Assembly (NCBI GenBank): GCA_019057865.1
Contig: JAHLWP010000052.1
Span: forward strand, 1 to 22,065
DNA length: 22,065 nucleotides
Source: Promethearchaeota archaeon
GTDB taxonomy: Archaea; Asgardarchaeota; Lokiarchaeia; Sigyniarchaeales; SOKP01
Direction: 5' to 3'
This document shows, piece after piece, positions 302-21,265 of the stretch (the first letter of the stretch is position 1; every line of letters starts with the position of its first letter). The notes under the pieces are model-generated. The model was given only the letters and a program-made list of their open reading frames with translations. It did no database searches and was not told where the DNA came from. The position numbers were made by a program, and so were the translations under genes.

Positions 302-682
302 ATGGATGTGTCTAACGTGGCATTTAATAGAAATTTAGATATTCCTCCAAAAGTAGGAAACATAAACATCGGCTTTTATACATTTGTAAAAATAGGATAT
401 TATGTTATCGGGATTGCAGATAAATCTTTAAAATCCCATCTTGATTATCCTAATTGGTATAAAAGTAAATATATCGCTAATAATTACTTTACTGAAGTCG
501 TCTACGCAGACCCAGTAATTGTAGGTCTGTCTTATATATTTAAGTGCCCTATAATAACGAACGATAAATATAGACAATATGAGGGAACAGAGTTGGAAGA
601 ATGGTTGAACAAGGTATTAATTCCCTTTAAAATTATTGACGGCAAGTTTAATTTGGTTGCAAAAAGAGACTCTTACGATTAA
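302..682 (+). CDS. Zc3h12a/Regnase-like NYN/PIN-domain ribonuclease (true start probably about 266)
   Basis: Motifs (NII)MDVSNVA (cf. vIDGSNVA), IADKSL, YAD and IITNDKYRQY carry the acidic PIN catalytic residues. The frame is open upstream to 248 and supplies the first beta-strand; AGGTGA RBS at 253-258. Confidence 0.75.
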   Translation: MDVSNVAFNRNLDIPPKVGNINIGFYTFVKIGYYVIGIADKSLKSHLDYPNWYKSKYIANNYFTEVVYADPVIVGLSYIFKCPIITNDKYRQYEGTELEEWLNKVLIPFKIIDGKFNLVAKRDSYD

Positions 683-3164: not shown

Positions 3165-3542
3165 CATTTGGCAAACATCCATAACATAAGTATAAATTGG
3201 CATAAATGTCCTCATTGCGACTATAAGGCTAAGCAAAAACCGAGCATAACAAGACACTTGGCAAATATCCATAGCATAGGTATAAATTGGCATAAATGTC
3301 CTCATTGTGACTATAAAGCTAAACAAGAATCGAACTTAACACAACATTTAGCTAATATCCATAACATAGTTATAAATTGGCATAAATGTCCTCATTGTGA
3401 CTATAAAGCTAAACAAAAATCGAACTTAACACAACATTTAGCTAATATCCATACCATAGGTATAAATTGGCATAAATGTCCTCATTGTGACTATAAGGCT
3501 AAGCGAAAATCTCATTTAACTATCCATTTAACTCGGAGTCAT
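3165..3542 (+). repeat. 90-bp coding tandem repeat (about 4.2 copies) encoding the zinc fingers
   Basis: tataaattggcataaatgtcctcattg recurs at 3191, 3281, 3371 and 3461. Confidence 0.95.
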
Positions 3543-3572
3543 GATTCAAGTACTAAAATTAAAAATGATTGA
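3168..3572 (+). CDS. Tandem C2H2 zinc-finger protein (four complete fingers plus a partial one at the N-terminus)
   Basis: Four units of C-x2-C-x12-H-x4-H (e.g. CPHCDYKAKQKSNLTQHLANIH) with a 30-aa period. Confidence 0.9.
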   Translation: MANIHNISINWHKCPHCDYKAKQKPSITRHLANIHSIGINWHKCPHCDYKAKQESNLTQHLANIHNIVINWHKCPHCDYKAKQKSNLTQHLANIHTIGINWHKCPHCDYKAKRKSHLTIHLTRSHDSSTKIKND

Positions 3573-3670: not shown

Positions 3671-4420
3671 CTAAGGTAGATTTGGATATTTTAAATATAA
3701 TGGATGTTTTCCTCTGCTTGTCCTAACAAATACAAGCCCAATTAACTTTTTTGGATGAAACTCTTGAATTATCTCAAAAATCCTACCAATTGTGTAGCCT
3801 GTATGTATTAAATCATCAATAATTATTCCAATATCATTATTAATAACTTGACTTATTTTTGGATTATATGAATCTTTTAATTTATATTTAATTTTAACAT
3901 AATTTTCTTTATCCTCAATTCTATTTATTTGGTTGTCAGTTTCTATAATTTCTAACGGATTTACCATTATTAAATTATTATCTAAAATTAGATTTTGAGC
4001 AATTCTCAAAAGAAGCTGATTTGATGTAGGAACCCATGATCCCCATTTTATATTAATTTTTTTTTTAATATTTTTAAATAGGGTGTTTAAAATAAGAAAT
4101 AATTCTTGGTAATATTTTTGTCCCTCTGCTATTCTCATTTTAATAATTCGTTTAGTAAATTTATTCAATGGATTGCCGGTATAATCTGTTTGGTAATATC
4201 CTACAAACTGAATTAAATAGTTTAATTCTAATCTTTCTAATCCTTGATGATGGGCACATTCTTCATCATTTTTTAAAGGATATCCACATATTTTACAACC
4301 CTTTTGAATAGGTCCACTAATTGTATAATAGACTTCCCATTTCTCGTTAATTTTTTTTGATAAGACGTATCCCTGAGAGGGAGTCATTTCAATTTTTAAA
4401 TTTCTAAAAATCATTTGCAT
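3671..4420 (-). CDS. ComF-like type I phosphoribosyltransferase with an N-terminal zinc-binding motif
   Basis: PRPP-binding loop IIIDDLIHTGYTI; CKICGYPL....ECAHH zinc motif; WVPT loop and C-terminal LVFVRT typical of ComF. Confidence 0.8.
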   Translation of the reverse strand: MQMIFRNLKIEMTPSQGYVLSKKINEKWEVYYTISGPIQKGCKICGYPLKNDEECAHHQGLERLELNYLIQFVGYYQTDYTGNPLNKFTKRIIKMRIAEGQKYYQELFLILNTLFKNIKKKINIKWGSWVPTSNQLLLRIAQNLILDNNLIMVNPLEIIETDNQINRIEDKENYVKIKYKLKDSYNPKISQVINNDIGIIIDDLIHTGYTIGRIFEIIQEFHPKKLIGLVFVRTSRGKHPLYLKYPNLP

Positions 4421-4425
4421 AAATT

Positions 4426-5160
4426 TTAATTTATGGAGTTCGATAGAATAATTAAAAGCCTATTAACAGATTCTTTTGAATGGTTTCCGTAGATCAATAG
4501 ATTCCCAGAAGAATCTAATCTTGCGGTCAGATCTTTCATTCGATTACCTTCTGAATCAGCGATATTCCATCTTATTCTAAATGTTATAACTTTAATCTGT
4601 TCTGAATCTTGAATTAATTGGTTAAAATAACCAATATTCTGTACATCATTAGTGCTTAAATTCAATTCTTTAATTAAATCGCCCTCTAAATATACTTTAT
4701 ATAAAATTAGTCTATGTAATTTTATACCATAACCTTCTTCAAGACATTGGCTTTTTAAGTTATTCCAAGTTTTTATTAATTTCTTGGGTTTGAAATCTTT
4801 TGGTAATATGTCAATATTGCTATTAAGATATTTTTCTATTAAATATCGTATTTCTCCTTGACCTCTTGCAATATATAACAAAATATCTTTTTGAATTAAA
4901 TTAATATCCTCTGGCACCCACACCTTAGTTTCTCCTGGCAATTGCATATTGTATTGATATCTAAGAGTATACGCGTTATCTGCTAAATTTTCATTTACAA
5001 GAATGTTGGGAGTTTTTATGTTTTTCTTTAATCTATCAATCTTCTGATTAACAGACTCTAGATCTCCTCGTACAGACTTAACATCATCCAACCACATAGA
5101 AGAAAATAAGCTTTTTAAATCAAATTTTTGTTTAATTCCATAAATTTTGTAAGATGGCAT
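4426..5160 (-). CDS. Hypothetical alpha/beta protein (operon gene 4)
   Basis: About 244 aa. The ATG at 5160 follows a GGAGTG RBS, so the GTG at 5169 used by the track is part of that RBS. C-terminal ITFRI...LTARLDSSGNLLIYG beta-meander. Confidence 0.8.
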   Translation of the reverse strand: MPSYKIYGIKQKFDLKSLFSSMWLDDVKSVRGDLESVNQKIDRLKKNIKTPNILVNENLADNAYTLRYQYNMQLPGETKVWVPEDINLIQKDILLYIARGQGEIRYLIEKYLNSNIDILPKDFKPKKLIKTWNNLKSQCLEEGYGIKLHRLILYKVYLEGDLIKELNLSTNDVQNIGYFNQLIQDSEQIKVITFRIRWNIADSEGNRMKDLTARLDSSGNLLIYGNHSKESVNRLLIILSNSIN

Positions 5161-5175
5161 ATTTTTCACTCCTAC

Positions 5176-6750
5176 TTATTGTATTGTTAATAAATATTCA
5201 TAAAAATCATTATTAATAGAAACGAGACTAACAGGATTATAGTCTAGTCGAACATTTGGTTCCCGTGTCGCATCATAATTATAATTGAATATATTCTGTC
5301 TTAAATAATTAAAGTTTGGATGGTTCATAGCTGTTTGATGGCCAATTATTATTAACTTTTTTTGAGCTCTTGAAAGACCTACTAAAATTCGATGCCTATT
5401 TTGCATGAATCGAGATCTTACATCCGGTTCTGCAAATGTTAATGAATAAAATACAATTTGTGCTTCCTGACCTTGAAATGCATCGACTGTATTAGCATTT
5501 AATCCAGTTGCTCTCCTTAGTCTTCTAGCTTGAGGCTTATAAGGAGTTACTATCTTCACATTATCATTATTAATTTCTAAGGTTGGAAAGGCTCTTTGAA
5601 GTAATATAGACAAACTACTTACAATTTCAACTTCCCTAATGTTTATTCGAGAGCTTCTTACTCTTGTATCCAAACTTATATCACCCAAGTTCGAAGTATC
5701 TATGACTACAACTGTTTTTTGTGGATTGAAAATACTATCTAAAAGATCTGAATATGAATCACTTTCAAAATTTTGATAATCTGGTAATAAATAAGAAGGA
5801 GCAGTAACATTCTCACTATCTCTTATCATCACTATTCTTCTAGCAAATCTAGATGATATATCTCTAATTGCAGGATGCATACGATATTGAATATTTAAAG
5901 TTATTTGTCTATTTTCAGGAATCCTAGAGTTTTCATATTCAGGAAGTCCTCTTAAGTAATCTATACAGCTATGAGTTAAAGGTTCCAATGATGAAATGGG
6001 GGATAATTGACAATCATCACCAATTAATCCAAAGGATCTTATTGAAGGATTTTGTGATATTGGAAGATACATTTCTGCAGGAGTCAATTGACTGGCTTCA
6101 TCAAAAAGAACTGTCTGCGATCTTATAGGATTTGGTAATCTAAGTAAATCATTACATGCATATATAGTCCCTACAAATACTATTCCATTATCTAACTGTT
6201 CTTGATGGACTCTAGGATCTTCATTACTAAATGGTCTGGGTCTGATAATATGGTTCCTAACAGATTCTGAAATATCTTCTTCATTGACGGTTTGAGCAAT
6301 AACTCTACGAAAATATATTTCCCATCCACGAATTCCAATGATGTTTAAAATCTCAAGAATTTTTTCAAAAATTCGATCTGCTCCATAGTTAGATGAAGTA
6401 CATAAAAATACTCTTGGCGAACTTGCTAGATATTGAGGATTACAGACGTATAAAAGTGCACCATATGCAATAACAGTAGTTTTTCCTGTTCCTGGCGGAC
6501 CAATAATAATACAACTTGAGAACTGTTGACGAGTTGGAGGATCAATTACATAAAATCGATCTGAACCTATAAAACTATCTAAAGTTGTGCTTTGAGTTCT
6601 CCTTATTCTTGTAGGAAAAACACTTGCTCTCCAAATTCTCCTAATTGCCTGTTTTTGACTATCATTTAAAGCATTCTCTAAATCACTAGACTCATTCAAC
6701 TTCTCTTGTATATAATCATTGATTCTATTAGTTATAATTTCCCACGACAT
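5176..6750 (-). CDS. Superfamily 1 helicase, UPF1/Dna2/NAM7-like (AAA_11/AAA_12)
   Basis: LNDSQKQA (Q motif), GPPGTGKT (I), TSSNYGAD (Ia), FDEASQ (II), GDDCQLSP (III), QYRMHPAI (IV), TVDAFQGQE (V), VGLSRAQ (VI). AGGTG RBS upstream. Confidence 0.93.
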   Translation of the reverse strand: MSWEIITNRINDYIQEKLNESSDLENALNDSQKQAIRRIWRASVFPTRIRRTQSTTLDSFIGSDRFYVIDPPTRQQFSSCIIIGPPGTGKTTVIAYGALLYVCNPQYLASSPRVFLCTSSNYGADRIFEKILEILNIIGIRGWEIYFRRVIAQTVNEEDISESVRNHIIRPRPFSNEDPRVHQEQLDNGIVFVGTIYACNDLLRLPNPIRSQTVLFDEASQLTPAEMYLPISQNPSIRSFGLIGDDCQLSPISSLEPLTHSCIDYLRGLPEYENSRIPENRQITLNIQYRMHPAIRDISSRFARRIVMIRDSENVTAPSYLLPDYQNFESDSYSDLLDSIFNPQKTVVVIDTSNLGDISLDTRVRSSRINIREVEIVSSLSILLQRAFPTLEINNDNVKIVTPYKPQARRLRRATGLNANTVDAFQGQEAQIVFYSLTFAEPDVRSRFMQNRHRILVGLSRAQKKLIIIGHQTAMNHPNFNYLRQNIFNYNYDATREPNVRLDYNPVSLVSINNDFYEYLLTIQ

Positions 6751-6760
6751 TTCTTACACC

Positions 6761-8506
6761 TTAAATGAATCGTACACGATTTCCAAAAATTCCTTCCCCT
6801 GCCCTTCTATCATTATTAGTTAATCTTTCTTCTAATACTCGTAACTCATATTGTTCAATAGTTTCACTTTCATTTTGGGTTGTCATAAAATTGGAAGCAC
6901 GCCATATTGCTGATTGTTGTCTCCTTAAATTTCTTATATACTCCTCAACAGGGAATTCACCAATAATAATTGGTAAAAGTTCATCTTGAGAAAAATATTC
7001 AAATATATCATTCAGATTTTGTCTTTTATTTGGATTTTCTGAAAAGTCAGTAATAATCGTTCCAATATCCTCATCAATTAATCTAACTTCAAGATCTAGA
7101 AGAAACATAAAAGGACTCCAAAAAGTAATATATAACTTCTGCTCTCTGGGTATATCATCTTCAAAAATATGATTTTGAAAAAATAAAATATTATCTCTTC
7201 TCTCAACCTCTCCAACCCAGATTCCAATATGATTTTTTAATTCTAAAAGATTATTCAAGAATAAAAATAAATAATAAAATCCGCTAGAATTGAGTGTGAT
7301 TTCGTCTCTAATATATTTTTGAAATGATAGTACATTTTCCACTACAACCGCTGGAGGGATTTGCACATAATCTCTCATGCTACATCCAAGGTTCCATCGT
7401 AAGCCACAAAATTGTCCTCGTAATTCAGCTACCAAGCAATCAAAATCAGTATTTAATATTAGGTTGGGTCTTCTTCCATGTAATAATTTCAGCATTAGTA
7501 GTGTTTGTGCGGTTCTAAGAGGTAAATTTACTCCAAATTCGACTAGATAATTTTCTGTATAAGTTTGATCCAAAGTTTCTAATCTTAAATTAAACCTTGT
7601 AAAGTCATGAGGAGAAGGAATTTCTTCTCTTAAAACCGATTGAAAAATATTATTATTGGCAAAGGATAAATTAAACTCCTGTAAAAATTCAGGAGCTAAT
7701 GTTGAAAGAGCAAGTCGCTTTAACCACAAATTATGTAAATTAGGAATAATAAACATTTGATTTTCATAATTTGTGAAATTTTCATGCTCAGGTTCGAGTC
7801 TAATAAAGTCTCGTGAATAGAATAAATAAGAGACAATTTCATTCCTATCAAAATTAATTTCATTAATTTTTGAATAGCCTGGAAAAGGGTCAATCCATCG
7901 AAATCTGTATGGATTTGGATTTCGTTCGGTTCTTCTTAGGGCTATTTCATATGGCATTCCATCATCAGAGGGTGGTAAAGTTATGTGTGGATTAAATAGT
8001 TGAAGATTAAAGAAGATATTACCTATAGAATCTCTGTATCTATTAAGGGTGCCTTCATCTTGTAACCTTTGAAATAACCTTAAAATATAAGGTATAGCAT
8101 CTCCATTCTCATGATCCAAAAACAGATTAAAAAGGTTCCTCCATTGAATAGATTCTAATGGTTGGTTTATTAGACGCCAAGCTTCATTATTCCAAACAAT
8201 ATATTTTAATACATCAATAACAGTTGAATCGAATGCTTTTTTATATCGATAATAATTTCTAAAAACATTTTGATCATCCACATCCTGATCAAACGCTCTA
8301 AAAATTACATGAGGTTGAGGTCTTCTTCCTTTTATATTTTTTAAGAAAAGGAATTTTGGACAGAAGGGTTGACTTAAGTCTTTAAGAGCAATTATTGGAT
8401 CAAAGGGAGGAACCCGAGGATTCCATAGGTTATATCTTAAATCTGATTCATTTGGATAATTAATTGAACGAGTTCGATCTCTATAGTTAATTCTTTCATC
8501 TATCAT
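6761..8506 (-). CDS. Putative Fe-S 'iron-staple' Cas4/Dna2-like nuclease-fold protein, probably catalytically degenerate
   Basis: Exactly four Cys in a 1+3 arrangement: C49 in IALKDLSQPFCPKFLFL (Cas4/AddB-like N-terminal motif) and C357, C367, C375. Lies immediately upstream of the Dna2-type helicase. No clear PD-(D/E)xK residues. Confidence 0.55.
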   Translation of the reverse strand: MIDERINYRDRTRSINYPNESDLRYNLWNPRVPPFDPIIALKDLSQPFCPKFLFLKNIKGRRPQPHVIFRAFDQDVDDQNVFRNYYRYKKAFDSTVIDVLKYIVWNNEAWRLINQPLESIQWRNLFNLFLDHENGDAIPYILRLFQRLQDEGTLNRYRDSIGNIFFNLQLFNPHITLPPSDDGMPYEIALRRTERNPNPYRFRWIDPFPGYSKINEINFDRNEIVSYLFYSRDFIRLEPEHENFTNYENQMFIIPNLHNLWLKRLALSTLAPEFLQEFNLSFANNNIFQSVLREEIPSPHDFTRFNLRLETLDQTYTENYLVEFGVNLPLRTAQTLLMLKLLHGRRPNLILNTDFDCLVAELRGQFCGLRWNLGCSMRDYVQIPPAVVVENVLSFQKYIRDEITLNSSGFYYLFLFLNNLLELKNHIGIWVGEVERRDNILFFQNHIFEDDIPREQKLYITFWSPFMFLLDLEVRLIDEDIGTIITDFSENPNKRQNLNDIFEYFSQDELLPIIIGEFPVEEYIRNLRRQQSAIWRASNFMTTQNESETIEQYELRVLEERLTNNDRRAGEGIFGNRVRFI

Positions 8507-8521
8507 TTTTAATACCTAATT

Positions 8522-9316
8522 TTAATAAATCAACCAAGGTTCGATTTTTATTTCAAATCCTTCAGTTTTATCATAAATATCATTATAAATTTCATTAATG
8601 CTTAATTTGCTTACTGGCTCACTATTGTTATCTATTTCTCGTAGGATATTAGCCAATGATTCGAAAATCCTTAAATTTATTAATGGTAAATTTTCTACTG
8701 TGATGTAAATAATTTCATTTGAAGATTTAAGTAATTTATTTAAATTCCCCCAGAAACAAAACCCAAGAAAAAGAACTTTGATTTCAAGAAGATCGAGTTT
8801 ATAAAAAAAATCATTTAAAGCCATTTCAATTTTTTCTAGATCTCCTCTAAATAAGTTATCTGTAACAATATTATTTTCTAAGTTTGCATTAATGAGATCT
8901 TCGATTTTATTTATTTTTATACAATAGTTCAATTTATTCCATTTCAGAAAAAAAAGATAACCTTCATTTAAATTATCTTTTAACTTTTTTTTATATATAA
9001 TTTCAGAGATTATAGAAAAGAGTTCAAATAAACGATGGATGTATAAATTATCTAAACTTCCATTAGTCAATCTAACTTTATGCTTCGTTTCCTCTTCTGC
9101 TGCTACTATTTCTTCTATAGTTATTATATGTTCAATTACTTGTCGAAATATGGAAGGATTCACTCTTTCTAATACATATAATAATTCTTTTAATCTTATC
9201 TTAAGTTGTTTTACAGGACCGTTTAATATTTGTTCCTCCAATGAATAATTTTGAAAATTTTGAGGAAGTAAATTATTGATATGTTGACTAATGTCTATAA
9301 CTGTTGCTTTTTTCAA
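8522..9316 (-). CDS. Hypothetical helical protein (operon gene 1)
   Basis: 264-aa ORF with a TTG start; ends 15 nt before the next gene; no motif recognised. Confidence 0.75.
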   Translation of the reverse strand: MKKATVIDISQHINNLLPQNFQNYSLEEQILNGPVKQLKIRLKELLYVLERVNPSIFRQVIEHIITIEEIVAAEEETKHKVRLTNGSLDNLYIHRLFELFSIISEIIYKKKLKDNLNEGYLFFLKWNKLNYCIKINKIEDLINANLENNIVTDNLFRGDLEKIEMALNDFFYKLDLLEIKVLFLGFCFWGNLNKLLKSSNEIIYITVENLPLINLRIFESLANILREIDNNSEPVSKLSINEIYNDIYDKTEGFEIKIEPWLIY

Positions 9317-9628
9317 CCTTTTAATTTTTTGGTCAATGATTTTAAATTGATGACTAATTTAAGATCCACCCTTAATTATTATCTATTATACATGATTATT
9401 TAGCCCTACCAGAAATATAAAATTGTTCCTATATTTGAATTAAAATATTTGAATTTATTTGTCTATCTAACTTAAAGATTTTTCCTATTAATATATATCC
9501 TATATTTAAAGAAGAAAATAGCGGTTTTTTTTAATAATAAAAGCGTCAATCATTCATTTTAACACTATTTCTTTAAAAGATGGTATAGGATTTACAGAAT
9601 ATACGACTATTAAACAATTTAAATTGTA

Positions 9629-12600
9629 TTATTTATTTAAAAAGTGATTATCAATAGTTTTAATAAACTCATAAAACTCATAAAATCCTCTATCTGTCAA
9701 TAATTCTTCAATATTAGTTACTTCTCTATTGAAATCTTGTATGCCATATTTTTCATTGACAAGCTTAACTATCTCTATAATATCATTTACATTCTTTTGG
9801 AAAAGCCAAGAACTGACACGTCCTTTTAATAACTTCTCAATTACATTAAGGACACTTTTAGGATTAAGCTCTATGTATTTTTTTAAAATATCAAATATAA
9901 AATTTGTAGAATTCCCTAAATTTCCTTTTGTTAATTCTAACACCTGATTTAATAAATCTATATATTTTTGCTGGACTTCCATTTTCTGAAATAAATTTCC
10001 ATACCAATGAATTTCTTCATAAATTTCATCAACTGTAAGATTTTGCTTTTGCTTTAAATATTCTATTACATATTCCCAAAGATATAAGATCCGTTTAAGT
10101 ACTTGTTCTTTCTCACTAATATCTTTATTTTCAATGTAAATTTTATTAGTAAACCACATCATTTTTGAACGCATTTTTGATGAAGCATTATTTAGAAATG
10201 AATAGATTAATGAGTTTTCACTTAAATCTTCGAGTTCAAAAACATATGCAAGAACCATATGAGATGATAGTCCCTCAAGTGATTTGTACGAGAAAACTAT
10301 ATTTTCGACAAGCATTTCAATAGCTCTTATATATTCATTCCGTAAATGAGAGTATATTTTTGAATTCAATTGATTATAAGAAATATAGCTTTCCCATGCA
10401 ATTAGCCATAAATCTTGGTTTTCTTTTAGAAAAATAATTGGTATTTTAGAAACAGCCCACTGCTCGTCTAAATAGAAAATATTATATAAATTATATGAGA
10501 TAATTGACCAAATTATTCTAGCAGAATTATGTTTAGGATCAAGTATTTCATCTAATTTTTCCCTTACTTCAGGAACCATTCGATGTTGTGGGGGTAAGTT
10601 TGAAACACTCGCATGGTGAAGTGCATATGCAATTATGAGTAATAATACAGAACCCGTATAAGTATTAATCGAAAAATGCATATAATCCCTGTAATGGGAA
10701 TCTTGTGCCTTTGATCTAGGTTCATCTATAGATAAAAATAATAAAATGACCCCCCAAATATCATTTAATAAAGTTTCTTTTAGCTTAATAGTTCTTAATG
10801 CCAAACATTCTCGAAAATAAGAAATAAGGACACGCCAAAGACTGAAATTATTCAATAATTTCTCATCACCCATATATCGTCTTGAGATCTGAATCATAAT
10901 CTGGGTACATTCCTCGATATTAAATTCATCTGACTTTTTTATTGCACGAGTAAAACCCTCTATAATATGCTTAATATAATAAAAAGTAATTTCCGAGTAT
11001 TTTAACAGTAAACCAATATACTTGGAAGGATTCTCAAAAATCATATCCCTCAGTAAATATCCTAAACTTGCATTTTCTGGATGCTCAACGATATAATCAA
11101 TTAGTTCTTCAACTTCTAAATTTTTGATTTCTTCTGTATTTAATTCTTTTTTAAGTCGAAGTTTTACTTTCTCGACTTCTGGAGTGATCTTATCGTATAT
11201 CTCTTTTATTTCTGGAGGTAAGACATTTACTATTGGCTTTGCTTTTTTTTTCACCCAATTTATTCTAAATCTTTCTTTATATTTTTCAAATTCATCTTGA
11301 TTTTCAAAAAGATCAAGTGTAATTCCAAGTTTTGAATAATTAGGACCTCTTTTTATCCAATCTAAAATTTTTTCTTGAGCTTTGAGAGAAATTCGAGTGA
11401 AATTTTGGTTTAACAATTCAGAATATTCATTCCAATAATTGTCATTCTCAAATATTTCAAAGTTAATCAGATATGATTCAACTTCATTTGTGAATATATC
11501 AGAATAAGTCTTTAATAAATACAGTTGGATTCTAATGAAAATAACCCATTTATACCTTGAAATAATTAAAAACTTTGATTTGAGAGTATCTATATCTTTT
11601 GCTGCTATTTGCTTTAAATATCCTATTATTTCATTCACTAATTGGTTTCTAATATCTTCACTAGACTTAACTTCGATAGAAGGTTTCCATATCTCAGAAT
11701 AGTCCTTATAATTATCATTAATACTAAATTCATTTTCAAAATATTTTGACAAACTATCGATTAAAATTTCTAAGTAATTACTCGAGTTCGTTGTTAAATC
11801 GATGGTTATTAGTTTTTCTCTAATATCATTATATTCTGAAAATATAAAATAAAATTTATCAAGGAGGGTATCATATTCATTTCTAATTTCTGGTTCATTT
11901 ACAGAAAAAATTATAGATAAAAACTCAAAAGCTTTATCATTTTCCCCTTCATCTAAAATTTTTTTTATCAATTCCATAATTTTTGCTAATATTGGTATAG
12001 AAATGAAATATGACATCCATTTCTTTATGATTGGAATACTCTTCTGAGATACTTCCACAGGCATATTATAAAGACACTCCATTAGTGGCCAGTATATCTT
12101 ATAATTTTTAGAATCTGATAATGATTGAATAATGGAAAAGACATCTTTTGGTCTTACACTAGAGATTTTTATTAAATAATTCACTTGAGGCCATATTGAA
12201 ACCATCAGAGAGCCCTCGACTGCCTCAGTTCTGGGTTCTGTAAAAAAAGAATTTTTAAGAAGTATATTAAACCAATTTGGAGATGAAAGTCTGGTAAAAA
12301 AATATTGAGAATGAGATGGTTTACTTAATAATTGAAATAAAAGTTCAATATCCTTATGATTAGGTGTTTCCTTTTCAAGTAACTTATCTAGTTCTCTCAA
12401 GATTTCAATATTTGATTTTAAAATCTCTGAAATAATTATTTGAAATTCTCGAAATTTTTCTTCAAATTCTTCTTTATTAGTTCTTTTTAAGCCGCTTGAA
12501 ATGTTAGAAAAGAAACTACATAAATTTGATAATTCATCGAAAAGTCTGTTCTTAAGTTCCTCTGATTTTTTGGGCAAAATCTCTACATTTTTGAAAAAGT

Positions 12601-13687
12601 CTTCTTTTAGTTTCTTTAGAAAATTACAAATAAATGAAATCGAAAGAGATGATTGAGAAAATCTCACTGAGAGGCTCGTATTACGAAATGTTGAAATCGC
12701 ACCAATAAAGTGATTTGCAATATCTTCATCCAACTCCAAAAGCGTAAGAAACAAAGTTTTTTCTTCATTTGACATCTTATCAGTTGGAATTTCAAGTTCT
12801 TTTAGATTTCTCTCATAGTATAATTTTAATTCTCTTTTTACCTCTTGAAAGGATCCATATCTATCAGCAGGGTCTTGTCTTATCATCTGGTCTATAATAA
12901 TATCAAAAAGAACACCATAATTTGGATTTTTATCACTTATACTTTGTCCCGTACCTCTTGGTATTTCACCAGTTAATAATTCATAAATAACATATCCTAA
13001 AGAAAATATATCAAACCTTTTATCAGGATTTTTCTCGGGTGCATAGTATTTTCGGTTCTTTGGTATCTTTTTTGGATCAGTTTCAACTCCTTCTACTTGA
13101 AATTCTTCACGGAGATGTGCAATTCCGAAATCAGCAACAATGGCACGGTTATTTTCTCCCATTATTAAAATATTCTCTGGTTTTATATCTCGGTGATAAT
13201 TAACTTCCTCATCATCTTCATGTTTTTTTCCTTTATCATGAATATATATTAATCCCTCAATTATTTCAAAAAGAATCCGTCTAAATTCATCAGAATTATT
13301 TTTCAAATCTATTTCTTCTGAAAATTTTCTTAAATCACATTTTGCCTTAGGCATTACATAAAATGGAAGGAACTCATAGGTTTCATAGCTAATCTCTCCC
13401 TGGTTAATAGCTTTAAGAACATTGGGGTGATCTGAATTTATTGAAAAATCAATTTCATTTTTAAATCTCGCTAAATTTTCAGCATATGGTTCTTTTATTC
13501 GTGCAAATATTTTTAAAGCTAATTTTTTTCCCTTTGAATCCTCACATCTGTAAACCTTTCCTCCGCCACCTCTCCCAAGTTTATCCCCTGTAACTTTATA
13601 AATCTCTCCATGCTTACCTTCAAATTCTATAAGTTTCAATTTTTCTAATTCAAATTTGATCTCACTTTCCTTTCTTCTTTGTGCCAT
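9629..13687 (-). CDS. Hanks-type Ser/Thr kinase fused to a degenerate HEPN-like domain and a long alpha-helical (sensor-like) region
   Basis: Intact GRGGGGKV, ALK, HRDIKPEN, DFG, APE and DIFSLG within the first 290 aa; then LDEDIANHFIGA...; then YFFTRLSSPNWFNILL...WPQVNYL and about 900 aa of helical sequence. AGGTG RBS. Confidence 0.88.
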   Translation of the reverse strand: MAQRRKESEIKFELEKLKLIEFEGKHGEIYKVTGDKLGRGGGGKVYRCEDSKGKKLALKIFARIKEPYAENLARFKNEIDFSINSDHPNVLKAINQGEISYETYEFLPFYVMPKAKCDLRKFSEEIDLKNNSDEFRRILFEIIEGLIYIHDKGKKHEDDEEVNYHRDIKPENILIMGENNRAIVADFGIAHLREEFQVEGVETDPKKIPKNRKYYAPEKNPDKRFDIFSLGYVIYELLTGEIPRGTGQSISDKNPNYGVLFDIIIDQMIRQDPADRYGSFQEVKRELKLYYERNLKELEIPTDKMSNEEKTLFLTLLELDEDIANHFIGAISTFRNTSLSVRFSQSSLSISFICNFLKKLKEDFFKNVEILPKKSEELKNRLFDELSNLCSFFSNISSGLKRTNKEEFEEKFREFQIIISEILKSNIEILRELDKLLEKETPNHKDIELLFQLLSKPSHSQYFFTRLSSPNWFNILLKNSFFTEPRTEAVEGSLMVSIWPQVNYLIKISSVRPKDVFSIIQSLSDSKNYKIYWPLMECLYNMPVEVSQKSIPIIKKWMSYFISIPILAKIMELIKKILDEGENDKAFEFLSIIFSVNEPEIRNEYDTLLDKFYFIFSEYNDIREKLITIDLTTNSSNYLEILIDSLSKYFENEFSINDNYKDYSEIWKPSIEVKSSEDIRNQLVNEIIGYLKQIAAKDIDTLKSKFLIISRYKWVIFIRIQLYLLKTYSDIFTNEVESYLINFEIFENDNYWNEYSELLNQNFTRISLKAQEKILDWIKRGPNYSKLGITLDLFENQDEFEKYKERFRINWVKKKAKPIVNVLPPEIKEIYDKITPEVEKVKLRLKKELNTEEIKNLEVEELIDYIVEHPENASLGYLLRDMIFENPSKYIGLLLKYSEITFYYIKHIIEGFTRAIKKSDEFNIEECTQIMIQISRRYMGDEKLLNNFSLWRVLISYFRECLALRTIKLKETLLNDIWGVILLFLSIDEPRSKAQDSHYRDYMHFSINTYTGSVLLLIIAYALHHASVSNLPPQHRMVPEVREKLDEILDPKHNSARIIWSIISYNLYNIFYLDEQWAVSKIPIIFLKENQDLWLIAWESYISYNQLNSKIYSHLRNEYIRAIEMLVENIVFSYKSLEGLSSHMVLAYVFELEDLSENSLIYSFLNNASSKMRSKMMWFTNKIYIENKDISEKEQVLKRILYLWEYVIEYLKQKQNLTVDEIYEEIHWYGNLFQKMEVQQKYIDLLNQVLELTKGNLGNSTNFIFDILKKYIELNPKSVLNVIEKLLKGRVSSWLFQKNVNDIIEIVKLVNEKYGIQDFNREVTNIEELLTDRGFYEFYEFIKTIDNHFLNK

Positions 13688-13806: not shown

Positions 13807-16800
13807 TTATTTTCCTACAACTTCAGATATGAGATTTTGAAGTAGGTTTAAGTCTTTTTTTAGTTTATCCTTATTATTATTAATTTTTTTTGCTAAGGCA
13901 ACTACTTTTTGATGTGTTGGATTTGAATGATTATACCTAGGAATTTTCATTTCTGAGATTAATTTTGTTGTAGTAGATGTCTGCAACTTTTTAGTTTGAA
14001 TGAAATCTCTAACCTCTGAATAATTCATTATACTCGCAACGAAATATGCTTTATTTTCATCATTAAAAGGAATATACATGTTTTTATTATTTGTCATTGG
14101 TAATTTCTCCCCAAGATATTGATCATTAATCTTTTGTACGACTACACAACCAAATTCTCCCATTTCAGACCAAAAAATTCGATAAGGATAAAAAAGCCTT
14201 TTTTCTACATTATAAATAGCATAAAATGGTCCTTTAGATCGAAAATATTTTTTATAACCTGAACGTGTTATTAAAACTTCTTTAAACTTTAATAAATAGT
14301 TATACGTTTTAGGATACTCAACTTTCATTCTAGATAATGGTATTGCCTTTCTTGTAGCAGGATCATTTGTAATTATAATATATATGTTATCTGTATGATT
14401 TAATTCCCATATACCAACGTCTCTACCTCTTATTAGAGGGTAAACAAGATCTGGTTCAATCTTAGCCCTAACAAGTTGTACCTTTTTTTTACCTATTGTA
14501 TTTAAGTTTTCAATTAAAATCTTGCCATCAGGATAAGTCTGTAAGATTTTTACATAATAAACACCATTCATCCATGTGGTCACACCTGCTTTCCCTAAAT
14601 ATGGAGAAGAACCAGAGTATTTTTTCACTAACTCAGGAAATTTTTTATTTGCTGCAGAAAATATTGCCCATGGTGAGCCAGTTTTTTTGGATGATGGCAT
14701 TGCTAAAAATTTTTCAAGCTTTACTTTACTTTTTACATCTTTATATAACAATGAATTATCAGTAAGGTTCACCTTTTCTTTTTTACTCCAAATATTATAA
14801 TTTATAGGATATTCTGTTTTTTCACCTTTTTTACAATAAATAATTGCTGCTTTATTAGTAGCATGAAATGCTTTTAATTTATTAATATCATCAACTTTCC
14901 AAACATTGAAAAACTCTTTAGCAGAAATTCTAAATTTTCTAAAACCCTCACCTGTTTTAACAGACTGGAAAACTGTTTGTGTAATTAAAAAAATAAGTTC
15001 TCCTCCTTCTTTAAGATAAAAATCTATACATCGGTGTACAAATAACATTGCTATATCTTTTTTACCTCCACCAAGCTGAGCTTCAGTCCCACTTTTTAAT
15101 GAAAATAAATAATATTTCTTCCATAAATTTTGCGTATTTTTTCTATAACCTTTAGGGAGATTTTCCCAAGCAATCCAAGGAGGATTTCCTATTATATAAT
15201 CAAATTTGCCAATTGTAAAAGGTGCAAAAATATTTACCAATAAACGTGTCCAAATTCGATTTTTTCCCTCTTTTTCTAACTCTAAAAATTTTTGATATAA
15301 ATTTCTTAAATATTGTAATTGATCTTCAGGAAAATATTTCTTTAATCGATCTCTAAATTCGTTAAAATTACATTCAAGTTTAATACATTCTTCAAGAATT
15401 TGAAAAAATATTAATCTATGATTACTCTCAATAAAGACATTAGGAATATCAAAATTCCCAACTGTAGTAGACATAATATATGTGTCCCCTACAAGCGTCC
15501 TCTGTTTGGTCGAGGCAATAGAGTCAGATAAATAAATTGGGATAAAAATGGAACCTTTTGAAAAAGATATTAACTCCTTAATCGCCAATAGATAATTTGT
15601 TCTAGCTGTTATAGTGGCAATTGGATTCAGATCAATACCTTTAAAAGATTTCGTTATTCTGTCTAATAATTCTGATTCTTCAATAGTTGAGCTGAATTTA
15701 TTAATATATTTATGTATTGATTGAATAAGAAAGGTTCCAGAACCACATGTAGGATCCAATATTCGTGTATCTTTGTTAATATTTATATTATTTATAATAT
15801 ATTCAGCAATCCAATTTGGAGTATAAAACTCTCCTAAATCATGTCTTATCTCACGAGGAATCAAATCCTCATATAATTCTTTTAGAACATCTTCTATATT
15901 TCCTTCATAAACAGAACTGCTAGCAGGTTCATATTTATTTAATCGCTCTAATGCATTTATAATAGATTCTTCTAATGTTAATGTCCATTCTTCAGTAAAC
16001 CACCAAAAAAAATCACCTTCTAAAAAGTTATTTATTCCTAGATTTTCAAAGATACCTCCTTCAATCATATTATCAAAATTTCGCTTTAATTCATCTTTAC
16101 TACAATTTAATAAATATTCTAAGTACCCTTCAAATGCCGCTACAGTTCGAAGTGAAACTATTTCAGATGCTAAAAGAGTTAAAATTAGTGAAAAATATGT
16201 TTGAAGGCAAAATATGCATTCAGCCGTTTCATTTTTTGTTAAACCGAATTTCTTTGCAAAATTAATTAATTTTATTTTTGGATTTTTAAAATCATAACCA
16301 CAGGATTCATTATAAAATTTTTTCCACTCATTAAAAAGTATTTCAGTATGTATAACTTTTCTATTTTTTAAACACTTTATTAATTCTTTCATCATTTTTT
16401 TACAAATATCTGATGTAATCCCTAAAAATCTAGTTAATGATTTAGATGTTAATGGTTCTCGATAGAGTCCCCTAAAAAATTCAAGTAATTGGGGCATTGA
16501 TCTTAAGTTAATTTCATACATCCGAGATATTATCCAATTATCTCTCCATCTAATATAAATAATATTTTTACCATCTAAAGCTATTCCAAATAAAGATTCT
16601 TTCTTTACTTTAATTTCTTTAGCAAGCTTATTTATATAATCTTTTACTTGACTTATTGCATGATTACGTACTGATATTCCATCCATTGCTTTTGGTGATT
16701 CATATTCAACTATAAGAAATCCATATAGTGCATCAATTCTTCCTCTAAAAACACTTTTTTCATATTTAGGTTCAATTGTTATACCATATTTTTCAAAGAA

Positions 16801-16914
16801 TTGCTTTAATGCACTTTCAATTGCAATTTTCAAATCTTCTTCATTATCAGATTTGCTTGTTGCCTTTTGGAATGATTCATATATTTGTTTTAGATCATTT
16901 ACGTTATAACTCAT
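13807..16914 (-). CDS. Type IIG-like fused restriction-modification enzyme (endonuclease + N6-adenine methyltransferase + target recognition domain)
   Basis: N-terminal RGRIDALYGFLIVEYESP (PD-(D/E)xK-like, E at the K position); LGEFYTP; motif I ILDPTCGSGTFL; motif IV IIGNPPW; C-terminal TaqI-like TRD region (YPLIRGRD). Confidence 0.9.
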   Translation of the reverse strand: MSYNVNDLKQIYESFQKATSKSDNEEDLKIAIESALKQFFEKYGITIEPKYEKSVFRGRIDALYGFLIVEYESPKAMDGISVRNHAISQVKDYINKLAKEIKVKKESLFGIALDGKNIIYIRWRDNWIISRMYEINLRSMPQLLEFFRGLYREPLTSKSLTRFLGITSDICKKMMKELIKCLKNRKVIHTEILFNEWKKFYNESCGYDFKNPKIKLINFAKKFGLTKNETAECIFCLQTYFSLILTLLASEIVSLRTVAAFEGYLEYLLNCSKDELKRNFDNMIEGGIFENLGINNFLEGDFFWWFTEEWTLTLEESIINALERLNKYEPASSSVYEGNIEDVLKELYEDLIPREIRHDLGEFYTPNWIAEYIINNININKDTRILDPTCGSGTFLIQSIHKYINKFSSTIEESELLDRITKSFKGIDLNPIATITARTNYLLAIKELISFSKGSIFIPIYLSDSIASTKQRTLVGDTYIMSTTVGNFDIPNVFIESNHRLIFFQILEECIKLECNFNEFRDRLKKYFPEDQLQYLRNLYQKFLELEKEGKNRIWTRLLVNIFAPFTIGKFDYIIGNPPWIAWENLPKGYRKNTQNLWKKYYLFSLKSGTEAQLGGGKKDIAMLFVHRCIDFYLKEGGELIFLITQTVFQSVKTGEGFRKFRISAKEFFNVWKVDDINKLKAFHATNKAAIIYCKKGEKTEYPINYNIWSKKEKVNLTDNSLLYKDVKSKVKLEKFLAMPSSKKTGSPWAIFSAANKKFPELVKKYSGSSPYLGKAGVTTWMNGVYYVKILQTYPDGKILIENLNTIGKKKVQLVRAKIEPDLVYPLIRGRDVGIWELNHTDNIYIIITNDPATRKAIPLSRMKVEYPKTYNYLLKFKEVLITRSGYKKYFRSKGPFYAIYNVEKRLFYPYRIFWSEMGEFGCVVVQKINDQYLGEKLPMTNNKNMYIPFNDENKAYFVASIMNYSEVRDFIQTKKLQTSTTTKLISEMKIPRYNHSNPTHQKVVALAKKINNNKDKLKKDLNLLQNLISEVVGK

Positions 16915-19108: not shown

Positions 19109-21265
19109 TTGGTGATAATAGTAAAACCCGAATTTTATCATGCTGTTATAAAAATAACTCAAGTTCCCAATGTGAATAATAAAAGTGAAGATAACATATC
19201 GTGGTTATGTGACCCTTTTATCGACGGTTATGTATATGGTACCAAATTTACAATAGACAATGAATATTTTTCATGGAAATTCTTTATAAAAGAAAACTCC
19301 AAAGGAGAAGCTCTCAAGAGTGGGTATAAATTTTTGGATTATTTAAAAGAAATATATCCAGGATTATCAGGAAATGTGAAAGTAAAACCAATATACTCCA
19401 AAAAATTAAATGAAAAGAAAATCTTTTTCGAGGTTGTACTCCCAACACCCCCATTCAATAAAAAGGTAAGTCTTTTTAAAAAAATCCTTAATCTTTTTAC
19501 CTTTAATAACAGACACTCAATTAAAATATATGTTTTATGGCAAAAAGATGACTCTATCTTAGGAGGGGGTATTGAAGAGACAGAATTAGAAAAGGAATAT
19601 AAGCTTGATGAAAATTATAAAATAAAAATTTTTGTTTCTATAATGCCAAATTTCGATGAAAATTTAGATAATGAAGAACAAATGCAAAAACTGAAAGGAC
19701 ACATAGAATATTTAACAACAGATATCCGCAATACCAATGGTGTGAAAGCTTTCATTAAACAGGCATCAAATGAGACATGGGAAAACATATTAAATGGAAG
19801 ACCTTTCTGGAAGAACATTTTAGGTAAGGTAACAGGAAGGTATTATAGAGGTATTCAGGATCAAATTTCAGAAGATAAAATGCCTGGATTTGTGAATCCA
19901 GAAATTGTGGATTTTGAAATTCCTGAACATATACTAATTGATAAAGCAATTCATGTAAGAAATGAAAATATAAGTTTTACTCAAAGACCTAATAAAAATG
20001 ATATATCTCTTGGGTATTATATAAGTCGTGGAGTAATAACGAAAAGAATTGCTACCCTCCCAGTTAATGATCTCGCTCGTCATGCTCATATAGGAGGTAA
20101 AACAGGAGTTGGAAAAACCAGTTTTATAAATTCATTACAGTGTGAGATATCTAAAAAAAATCCTAAATGTGGAGTTTTGATCATGGGTCTGAGGAAAAGT
20201 AAAGAAGATATTCCCTATAATTTGGATATAACATTAAGATATGGAGATCCAGATTTTAGAGTTCCCTATTTTTTTAAAGGAGAAAATCTCGAGGTTACAT
20301 TTGAACAAACAGCAGCCTTAATAGTATCCTCAATGGGATTAAAACAACCAGTTGACCATGCCATGTACAATGTAATGCTTGAATATTTTAAAGAAAATAA
20401 AGATGTTCCACCGTCATTGAAGTCTTTGTTTGGAAAACTTCTTAATTGGTTTAAAGCCCATCCCTATCATAAAAAATACCAGACCAATATCATAAATGCA
20501 ATTAATAATCGTATCCTTAGATGGGTAAAATCTCCAATCTTAGATAAGATAACAAGATTACCTTCTATCAAACCGTATTGGTTTATTGAATGGATGAATG
20601 GTAAAAACGTTTTCATTGATATATCTGAATCTATTTGTAATAAATTTATGAAAAAACTATTAATCAATTTAATATTTCAGATGATACGAATTTTTTTTCC
20701 AGAAATTAAAACTAATGTATTAAGGAACTTAGTTATTTTAGATGAAGTGGGAGTTATCTTAAAAAGACCCTCTACTAATATAGCTCGTGATGATGATTTT
20801 GTATCACAATATTTTCTAGAAGAAGTATTTTGTAATTTCTTAGAATCGTTTAGAAGTAGAGGAATTGGTCTTATAACTACTGCTCAACTACCCTCTCAAC
20901 TATTCGAATCGATATATACCCTTCCAAATATTCATATTTTATTTACATTAGGACATAGTTGTACTAAATTATTTACGAATGACAGAGAAGAACAAGATTC
21001 CCTAATGCTTTTAGGAAAAAGAAAGGCGATAGTAAAAGATGGGATTAATAGCCGAAATTTTGCAATTTATACCATAGATTTTGATTATGAGAAAGTACCA
21101 TCCCAGTCTATAAAGAATCCCGAGAAGTTATGCCCTTTATGTTATAATTACATAGAGTCTTATGAAAATTTTTGTAGTGCCTGTGGGATTCCCTTAAATT
21201 CAGATTCTAAGTTAAGCATTGATAATCTAGATGAAGATTCTACTAAACTTAAAGAGAAAAATTGA
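19109..21265 (+). CDS. HerA/FtsK/VirB4-superfamily (DUF87) ATPase with a C-terminal double-CxxC zinc ribbon
   Basis: RHAHIGGKTGVGKT (Walker A), LVILDE (Walker B), FRSRGIGLITTAQLPS (arginine finger and conserved Gln), CPLC...CSACG. Confidence 0.9.
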   Translation: MVIIVKPEFYHAVIKITQVPNVNNKSEDNISWLCDPFIDGYVYGTKFTIDNEYFSWKFFIKENSKGEALKSGYKFLDYLKEIYPGLSGNVKVKPIYSKKLNEKKIFFEVVLPTPPFNKKVSLFKKILNLFTFNNRHSIKIYVLWQKDDSILGGGIEETELEKEYKLDENYKIKIFVSIMPNFDENLDNEEQMQKLKGHIEYLTTDIRNTNGVKAFIKQASNETWENILNGRPFWKNILGKVTGRYYRGIQDQISEDKMPGFVNPEIVDFEIPEHILIDKAIHVRNENISFTQRPNKNDISLGYYISRGVITKRIATLPVNDLARHAHIGGKTGVGKTSFINSLQCEISKKNPKCGVLIMGLRKSKEDIPYNLDITLRYGDPDFRVPYFFKGENLEVTFEQTAALIVSSMGLKQPVDHAMYNVMLEYFKENKDVPPSLKSLFGKLLNWFKAHPYHKKYQTNIINAINNRILRWVKSPILDKITRLPSIKPYWFIEWMNGKNVFIDISESICNKFMKKLLINLIFQMIRIFFPEIKTNVLRNLVILDEVGVILKRPSTNIARDDDFVSQYFLEEVFCNFLESFRSRGIGLITTAQLPSQLFESIYTLPNIHILFTLGHSCTKLFTNDREEQDSLMLLGKRKAIVKDGINSRNFAIYTIDFDYEKVPSQSIKNPEKLCPLCYNYIESYENFCSACGIPLNSDSKLSIDNLDEDSTKLKEKN

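Follow-up and report, generated by a model that had tools for sequence, protein, structure and literature searches.

ShosT is a phosphoribosyltransferase (PRTase) toxin that depends on phosphoribosyl pyrophosphate (PRPP). It needs PRPP binding (PMC12961424), disturbs purine metabolism (PMC11961720) and is countered by ShosA, a protein that binds DNA and RecA (PMC11961720, PMC12961424). RqlH, or PsyrT, is a fusion of a helicase and a PRTase with a genotoxic PRTase pocket, which is countered by the DprA-like RqlI (PMC4670107). The theme of PsyrTA and ShosTA, a helicase or DNA-binding protein together with a PRTase, is shared by a five-gene cassette of an Asgard archaeon that uses different, mostly new protein families. 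The cassette occupies positions 3671-9316 of the contig JAHLWP010000052.1 (Promethearchaeota archaeon, assembly GCA_019057865.1), and the window analysed here is this whole contig of 22,065 bp, from a genome of 4.26 Mb in total. By analogy, the cassette is best read as a PRTase-effector defence system of the PsyrTA/ShosTA kind. We consider the chances a little better than even that the five genes are one self-contained accessory operon encoding an undescribed defence system against viruses or mobile genetic elements (MGEs).

The cassette consists of five open reading frames (ORFs), all co-oriented on the minus strand and named g1 to g5 in the order of transcription. Together with the region upstream of them they are:

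9317-9628, minus strand: upstream intergenic region, likely promoter and 5' leader, judged from the sequence and the archaeal TATA consensus
8522-9316, minus strand: g1, 264 aa, TTG start; lysine-rich, acidic, unknown fold
6761-8506, minus strand: g2, 581 aa; like the N-terminal half of Dna2, with a predicted PD-(D/E)xK fold, four cysteines, a 1B-type beta-barrel and stalk helices
5176-6750, minus strand: g3, 524 aa; superfamily 1B (SF1B) UPF1/Dna2-like helicase core (domains 1A and 2A)
4426-5160, minus strand: g4, 244 aa; predicted RdgC / CENP-L (Iml3) / RexA fold, predicted DNA-binding subunit
3671-4420, minus strand: g5, 249 aa; N-terminal Cys/His cluster and type I PRTase domain

The comparison with catalogued systems was made with the PADLOC v2.0 models. 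No system was matched, and g1, g2 and g4 matched no model at E ≤ 1. The matches of g3 and g5 were confined to the domains shared with MkoA/MkoC and PsyrT/ShosT. An earlier note on this DNA, made from the sequence, had predicted that a new system would give no full match, and this was the outcome, with helicase and PRTase domains matching parts of MkoA, PsyrT and ShosT. A keyword search of the full-text literature, which cannot prove absence, found no description of this gene combination.

With PsyrTA/RqlHI, in which the PRPP pocket of the PRTase is the toxic element (PMC4670107), the cassette has in common a helicase, a PRTase and a predicted DNA-binding partner. It differs in that the helicase is of the SF1B Dna2-like type and not an SF2 RecQ, the PRTase has its own gene, the partner has a predicted RdgC fold instead of being a DprA, and the locus is archaeal with five genes instead of two. 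The PsyrT model was matched by the g5 of the window in its PRTase part only (profile positions 544-687 of 689). The likeness to ShosTA is a PRTase-type candidate effector encoded next to a predicted DNA-binding protein of a recombination-associated type. However, a DprA-like ShosA is absent, as g1, g2 and g4 gave no such match in PADLOC or Pfam, and the neighbouring g4 has a predicted RdgC fold; in addition, the cassette has a Dna2-like motor and g1, and g5 carries the N-terminal Cys/His cluster.

ComFA/ComFC likewise joins a helicase or translocase with a protein that combines a zinc-binding N-terminus and a PRTase domain. ComFA, however, is an SF2 DEAD-box protein, g5 scored below the ComF cut-off and no competence genes are nearby. 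For Mokosh, the resemblance is that g3 matched the UPF1-like helicase part of MkoA (1.6e-37) and of MkoC (1e-18). The match covers the helicase core only (MkoA profile positions 795-1080 of 1112) and the N-terminal region of MkoA is lacking. A phospholipase D (PLD) domain is found in none of the five proteins, and a PLDc_2 gene is near the cassette in one locus only (L002).

The operon and its relatives

The ORF listing confirmed the close spacing and common orientation of the five genes, which are separated by 15, 10, 15 and 5 nt when g4 is taken from the ATG at 5160 (the third gap is 6 nt if it is taken from the GTG at 5169). The ribosome-binding sites noted earlier for several of the genes were also found, as AGGT, AGGTG and GGAG sequences of the Shine-Dalgarno type 6-9 nt ahead of the ATG of g2, g3 and g4, respectively. 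Because the GGAG precedes the ATG at 5160 and the resulting N-terminus (MPSYK) equals that of all homologues, this is most likely the start of g4, giving 244 aa rather than 247 aa. The start of g1 is uncertain, since the N-terminal homology of its relatives extends upstream of the TTG to the stop codon at 9359-9361; in the extension, which is open to 9358, no canonical start codon was found.

A 312-nt AT-rich spacer lies between g1 and the kinase gene upstream. It contains the TATA-like box TTTAAATATA at 9501-9510, which by the archaeal TATA consensus is likely the promoter box of the operon. The downstream border is formed by a convergent gene for a C2H2 zinc-finger protein. An RNA component is not supported, because no Rfam family matched anywhere in the window and no meaningful repeats were present within or around the operon.

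To follow the cassette in other genomes, every fetched locus was scanned with hidden Markov models of the five families. The order g1-g2-g3-g4-g5 was kept in all loci with enough sequence, with identities of g2 from 86% down to about 21-25%, and the arrangement is therefore not due to chance. The co-occurrence of the homologues in independent loci, which had been named as a check, was thus observed. In the two most divergent loci (L030 and L031) g5 is inverted and still abuts g4; that this linkage outlasts the rearrangement is strong evidence for a functional coupling. The pairwise divergences of the five genes correlate with each other (rho 0.60-0.75) and the five genes are inherited together. 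Two cassettes deviate and look decayed, chimeric or mis-assembled. In the one at L010:4796-7371, g3 is cut to 190 aa and genes for enolase and RFC follow, and in the one at L029:1178-2351 a frameshift splits g2.

The families are small and specific for the cassette. Word-based searches found 14 proteins for g2, 21 for g4 and 19 for g5, and an exhaustive profile search for g2 gave 26 clusters among 1.84 billion protein representatives. The cassette was present in four of the 400 species genomes of the phylum. Within the genus of the window, 2 of 53 other genomes carry it, as a different subtype with about 25% identity in g2. All relatives with a name are Asgard archaea (Promethearchaeota, Helarchaeota and Odinarchaeota), to which the cassette is confined so far. 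The search for related loci found no cassette on viral contigs and no relatives on genome contigs.

The flanks vary from locus to locus, frequently with genes of the defence or MGE type. In the window these are a type IIG restriction-modification (R-M) gene and a kinase-Dsr1-like gene. Elsewhere, PLDc_2, an NTPase with leucine-rich repeats (NPHP3_N match), HNH, nSTAND3 together with HerA, a D12 methyltransferase, HEPN_AbiV, a retron-type reverse transcriptase (RT) together with Mrr, Tn7-like genes with KwaA, and BrxL with a DEAD-Mrr fusion were observed. Taken together, the homologues co-occur, no PADLOC v2.0 system matches, and the occurrence is patchy, in variable and often defence-rich neighbourhoods. 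None of the three findings named beforehand as refuting a candidate undescribed system was thus made, and the proposal is supported.

The proteins of the cassette

The assignment of g3 as a helicase follows from sequence searches. The protein matched the Pfam families AAA_12 (3e-27) and AAA_11 (8e-14), and the profile of its family matched Sen1, SETX, UPF1, IGHMBP2 and Dna2 in the PDB at 1e-27 to 4e-20, with 3.8e-20 for the Dna2 helicase. These matches agree with the UPF1/Dna2 type that had been assigned before. The helicase motifs GPPGTGKT, DEASQ, GDxCQLxPI, QGQE and LSRAQ are all intact and invariant in the family, and g3 is the sole AAA_12 helicase of the genome. Its N-terminus coincides with the motif LNxSQxxAI, which is the opening of domain 1A in UPF1-like helicases.

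Sequence searches with g2 found nothing relevant in the PDB (with a narrow and a wide profile), Pfam, NCBIfam or PADLOC, and its nuclease fold is therefore assigned solely from the predicted structure. The AlphaFold2 model, made with 12 homologues, reached a predicted local distance difference test (pLDDT) of 66.8 and a predicted template modelling score (pTM) of 0.74, with residues 80-345 mostly at 70-94. When the model was compared with the PDB by Foldseek, the best match was Dna2 (5eax; E 2e-4, probability 0.99), followed by the Cas4-family protein ACE1, AddAB, AdnAB, MGME1, RecE and Exo5. Superposition with VIA-align gave Z scores of 10.7 for the AddB nuclease, 8.8 for MGME1 and 8.4 for Dna2, where 327 residues between 21 and 526 of the model were aligned to residues 62-571 of Dna2. 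Residues 418-519 matched the 1B beta-barrels of ZNFX1 and SETX (Z 4-4.5). The cysteines C49, C357, C367 and C375 do not vary among 17 sequences, the most distant of which has 21% identity, and they correspond in position, with a different spacing, to the one-plus-three iron staple of Dna2, AddB and Cas4. The nuclease fold that had been proposed for g2 is upheld by the Foldseek and VIA-align results, together with a four-cysteine cluster formed by the invariant cysteines.

Since g3 begins at the LNxSQ motif, g2 and g3 together correspond, judged by the g2 model, to the Dna2 architecture split at the boundary between stalk and domain 1A. The domain order is that of Dna2 (5eax, 5ean): a PD-(D/E)xK domain with one N-terminal and three C-terminal cysteines, a beta-barrel, a stalk, and the SF1B domains 1A and 2A, which make up a motor of the 5'-3' type. 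Several features set the pair apart from Dna2. The two halves are on separate genes in all loci, with a 10-nt gap in the window, whereas Dna2 is one polypeptide, and the exhaustive search of the protein representatives found no fused g2-g3 form. The spacing of the cysteines is about C-x9-C-x7-C instead of C-x2-C-x5-C, a canonical catalytic lysine or ExK is lacking in g2, and there is no similarity to Dna2 at the level of the sequence. In addition, the operon includes a PRTase and an RdgC-like protein, and g2 and g3 are extremely depleted of lysine.

The active-site residues of g2 were mapped through the secondary structure of the model and not by a residue-level superposition. The canonical (D/E)xK is not conserved, with V, I, R, F or T at the position of the lysine across the family; the strand 223-227 reads E-I-V in the protein of the window, and E223 itself is not conserved. 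The acid of motif II is kept, as E216 in the clade of the window and as D at column 218 in distant clades, and on the helix where RecB-type nucleases have motif IV, W261 and R264 are invariant. Because the canonical lysine is absent in every member, g2 has probably lost its nuclease activity. A Dna2 that is split by nature, and whose nuclease site seems to be inactivated, would be useful for separating the threading and iron-sulphur (Fe-S) functions of the Dna2 nuclease domain from cutting. The C-terminal tail of g2, RRAGEGIFGNRVRF (encoded at 6761-6830 of the window), follows helices of low confidence and is strongly conserved; R568 and G575 are unchanged even at 21% identity. By this peptide g2 may dock to g3 or another subunit.

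A further feature of g2 and g3 is their composition. Lysine makes up 2.4% of g2 and 1.7% of g3, and arginine 8.8% and 9.0%, respectively, whereas the other three proteins of the cassette and those of all neighbouring genes contain about 9-12% lysine and 3-4% arginine. The genome has 1592 ORFs with 300 aa or more, and their median K/(K+R) ratio is 0.71; g3 has the lowest ratio of all (0.16) and g2 the second lowest (0.22). One stretch of g3, from residue 131 to 344, has no lysine in 214 residues. A horizontal transfer from a GC-rich donor was considered as the cause and rejected: the GC content at third codon positions of g2 and g3 (0.19 and 0.16) equals that of the neighbours and the arginines are mostly encoded by AGA, and the depletion is therefore a trait of the proteins and not a foreign composition. 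It is kept in most subtypes, including the most divergent, and is relaxed in L006, L019 and the g2 of L013. The replacement of lysine by arginine in just g2 and g3, in genomes with about 9% lysine, is a clear and testable anomaly.

The model of g4, made with 19 sequences, reached a pLDDT of 91.9 and a pTM of 0.87 and shows two TBP-like alpha/beta halves. With VIA, Z scores of 9.7 were obtained for Iml3, the yeast CENP-L (171 residues aligned), 8.6 for human CENP-L (187) and 8.3 for E. coli RdgC (200), and Foldseek matched CENP-L (2e-5), RdgC (1e-4) and RexA (7e-3) in the PDB with a probability of 1.00. A feature search of the protein atlas had given weak leads to CENP-L and RdgC, which the fold searches later confirmed. 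In the ESM Atlas, the shape of g4 matched a cluster of the GapS4b family with a template modelling (TM) score of 0.65 and a DEAD-box helicase fusion with 0.61. The fold comparison also matched phage-encoded RdgC proteins (E 1e-6). At the sequence level, no match to the Pfam family RdgC (PF04381) was found at E ≤ 1.

On the basis of the model, g4 has the DNA-binding fold of RdgC, RexA and CENP-L. RdgC, RexA and Iml3-Chl4 are an established family of DNA-binding folds; in the Rex system, by which lambda excludes phages, RexA is the component that binds DNA (PMC11077077). Over its entire length, g4 superposes on Iml3, CENP-L, RdgC and the phage RdgC proteins, all of which bind DNA. It has no sequence similarity to these proteins and is shorter than RdgC (244 versus about 300 aa), and in contrast to lambda Rex the cassette encodes no RexB-like membrane partner. 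Two of the five proteins had been listed as unknown in the earlier note; this still applies to g1, but g4 can now be assigned to a predicted fold. An Asgard protein with the RdgC/CENP-L fold would bear on the origin of this kinetochore fold.

By its sequence, g5 is a PRTase, and the toxins of defence systems that it comes closest to are ShosT and PsyrT. The Pfam model Pribosyltran matched 6 of 10 members of its family (best 1.2e-5), the PADLOC model PsyrT matched 8 of 10 (best 8.6e-6) and ShosT 7 of 10 (best 5.2e-9), and in the PDB the PRPP loop of HGPRT was matched at 7e-3. The PRPP loop IIDDLIHTGYT is intact with invariant DD and T, and D202, D203, T210, R233, T234, K178, Y179, T78, P84, N86, P131 and N134 are invariant. 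The strict conservation of the PRPP-loop residues argues for g5 as an enzyme. An N-terminal Cys/His cluster is formed by C42, C45, C55 and H58. The PRTase domain agrees with the previous assignment, but the ComF type does not, as g5 scored 13.4 bits with the ComF model TIGR00201, for which the cut-off is 233.55. For g1, an alignment of eight sequences with 23-55% identity showed a conserved C-terminal motif, IYDKTEG..IKIEPW. A homologous or positional equivalent of g1 is present upstream of g2 in all loci, and no relatives of g1 were detectable outside the cassette.

Defence and competing explanations

How the five proteins could act in defence may be pictured as follows. The motor formed by g2 and g3, for which g1 may be an adaptor, would load on free single-stranded DNA (ssDNA) or DNA ends that arise when a virus invades or replicates. 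In g2, the domain that resembles a nuclease would probably be a module for threading or end recognition and not a cutter. In uninfected cells, g4 would bind DNA and keep the PRTase g5 harmless, in the manner of the DNA-binding antitoxins ShosA and RqlI. Once the motor is engaged by foreign DNA, or g4 is titrated by it, g5 would be released and would consume or misuse PRPP, which would disturb purine and nucleotide metabolism, or it would act on DNA delivered by the helicase. By either route the infected cell would arrest its growth. If the cassette is a defence system, it would be a third, architecturally distinct case, after PsyrTA/RqlHI and ShosTA, in which a PRTase effector is joined with a helicase and a recombination-type protein that binds DNA. 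It would then strengthen the view of PRPP-dependent enzymes as a general class of immune effectors coupled to DNA sensing, and it would extend this class to archaea.

Several points weigh against this proposal. The antitoxin role of g4 is purely by analogy, and the g2 model has moderate confidence only, at pLDDT 66.8 overall and below 50 in the region of the cysteine cluster (344-418). The g5 of the window itself matched ShosT and PsyrT weakly (1e-3 to 6e-3; ShosT 5.8e-3). For g1, no usable match was found in Pfam (with the single protein or all members), the PDB, NCBIfam, PADLOC or the protein atlas. The flanking genes were listed locus by locus, and some loci adjoin housekeeping genes, namely RadA in L012 and L019, and enolase and RFC in L010.

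The lysine depletion allows a more specific version. Asgard archaea possess ubiquitin-like systems. In other proteins, lysine deserts shield from tagging with ubiquitin or Pup (PMC10169902, PMC10665810), and it is speculation that such a protection applies to g2 and g3. The cassette would then represent an Asgard immune system of a new type, with a lysine-desert sensor-motor of the Dna2 type that evades lysine-directed tagging and with g4 as an archaeal relative of the fold from which the kinetochore proteins CENP-L and CENP-N arose; we regard this as improbable. The threat would be ubiquitin-like conjugation by the host or a virus, or lysine-reactive chemistry from the PRTase effector of the cassette itself.

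Among the explanations other than defence, an accessory module for DNA repair, recombination or end processing survives best, and still appears unlikely. The Dna2-like motor would resect or unwind ends, g4 would modulate RadA as RdgC does RecA, and g5 would handle ssDNA like ComFC. Dna2 and RdgC are proteins of recombination and the replication fork, and the folds of g2, g3 and g4 match them; ComFA/ComFC offers a precedent for a helicase with a PRTase-like DNA handler (discussed in PMC4670107), and in two loci the cassette is within a few kb of radA. A repair function is difficult to reconcile, however, with a presence in just 4 of the 400 genomes that represent the phylum, with different subtypes within one genus, and with variable flanks of mostly the defence or MGE type. 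The catalytic lysine of g2 is absent, and g5 matched ShosT and PsyrT and not the ComF model, with the PRPP-loop residues strictly conserved as in an enzyme.

A direct restriction by a nuclease-helicase of the Nhi, Hachiman or AddAB type is improbable. Here g2 would be an active nuclease with a non-canonical site that degrades the foreign DNA threaded by g3, and g4 and g5 would be regulators. The predicted PD-(D/E)xK fold with the four-cysteine cluster, the acid at E216 or column D218 and the invariant W261 and R264 speak for such a nuclease, and GAPS4, a sensor of DNA damage that makes use of PD-(D/E)xK domains (PMC13748975), has in GapS4b a cluster shaped like g4. Yet a conserved (D/E)xK is missing and E223 varies, no sequence match links g2 to any nuclease family, and PADLOC gave no match of the Nhi, Hachiman or Gabija type beyond the generic P-loop.

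Still less probable is an addiction module of the toxin-antitoxin (TA) kind, in which the PRTase toxin and its partners would maintain an integrated element. The Tn7-like tniQ, tniB and transposase genes adjoin the cassette in L013, the occurrence is patchy and the effector resembles ShosT. But the search of viral contigs found no copy, an integrase or transposase is lacking in the vicinity of most loci, and five genes over 5.6 kb including a helicase are large for pure addiction; moreover, TA and defence roles can coexist. Finally, self-marking is far-fetched. In this case a mark would be set on DNA or nucleotides by the PRTase-like enzyme and read by the Dna2-like motor, and non-self DNA would be restricted. 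It has been speculated that the helicase-PRTase RqlH acts directly on DNA (PMC4670107), and the pairing recurs, but evidence of a modification and the second enzyme typical of modification pathways are absent, and the nearest PRTase relatives are toxins that act via PRPP (PMC11961720, PMC12961424).

Neighbouring genes

Upstream of the operon are a gene for a kinase sensor and one for a type IIG R-M enzyme, as was noted earlier and verified by the domain searches. The kinase gene (9629-13687, minus strand) encodes 1352 aa with an N-terminal Ser/Thr kinase domain (Pkinase 3e-27; PADLOC PD-T4-6 and mad6 at about 1e-29), and residues 428-1323 matched Dsr1, a defence-associated sirtuin, in its C-terminal part (PADLOC 3.8e-37). 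From these matches it looks like a Dsr1-type sensor in which the kinase replaces SIR2. A linkage of this gene to the cassette was rejected, as no kinase gene was beside the cassette in the other loci examined. The R-M gene (13807-16914, minus strand) encodes a complete type IIG enzyme (PADLOC REase_MTase_IIG 1e-265) with Eco57I and N6_Mtase domains.

The gene convergent with g5 (3168-3572, plus strand) encodes 134 aa with four tandem C2H2 zinc fingers (zf-H2C2_5 1.4e-21). C2H2 fingers also occur near the cassette in L013, in a TniQ-like gene. There, a Tn7-like TniQ with C2H2 fingers, a split TniB and a Mu-type transposase are located directly upstream of the divergent cassette (L013:1-5429), and a KwaA (Kiwa) gene lies downstream; this cassette may be the cargo of a transposon. 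In L019:14096-16590 and L012:703-3098, a retron-like RT (PADLOC RT_XIII 7e-83) is found beside radA (Rad51 4.6e-70), a few kb from the cassette.

Two further genes of the defence-island type are encoded on the contig of the window. The first (19109-21265, plus strand) encodes 718 aa with a weak HerA/DUF87 P-loop match and a C-terminal zinc ribbon, and the second (302-682, plus strand) an NYN RNase of 126 aa that is Zc3h12a-like (5.7e-6).

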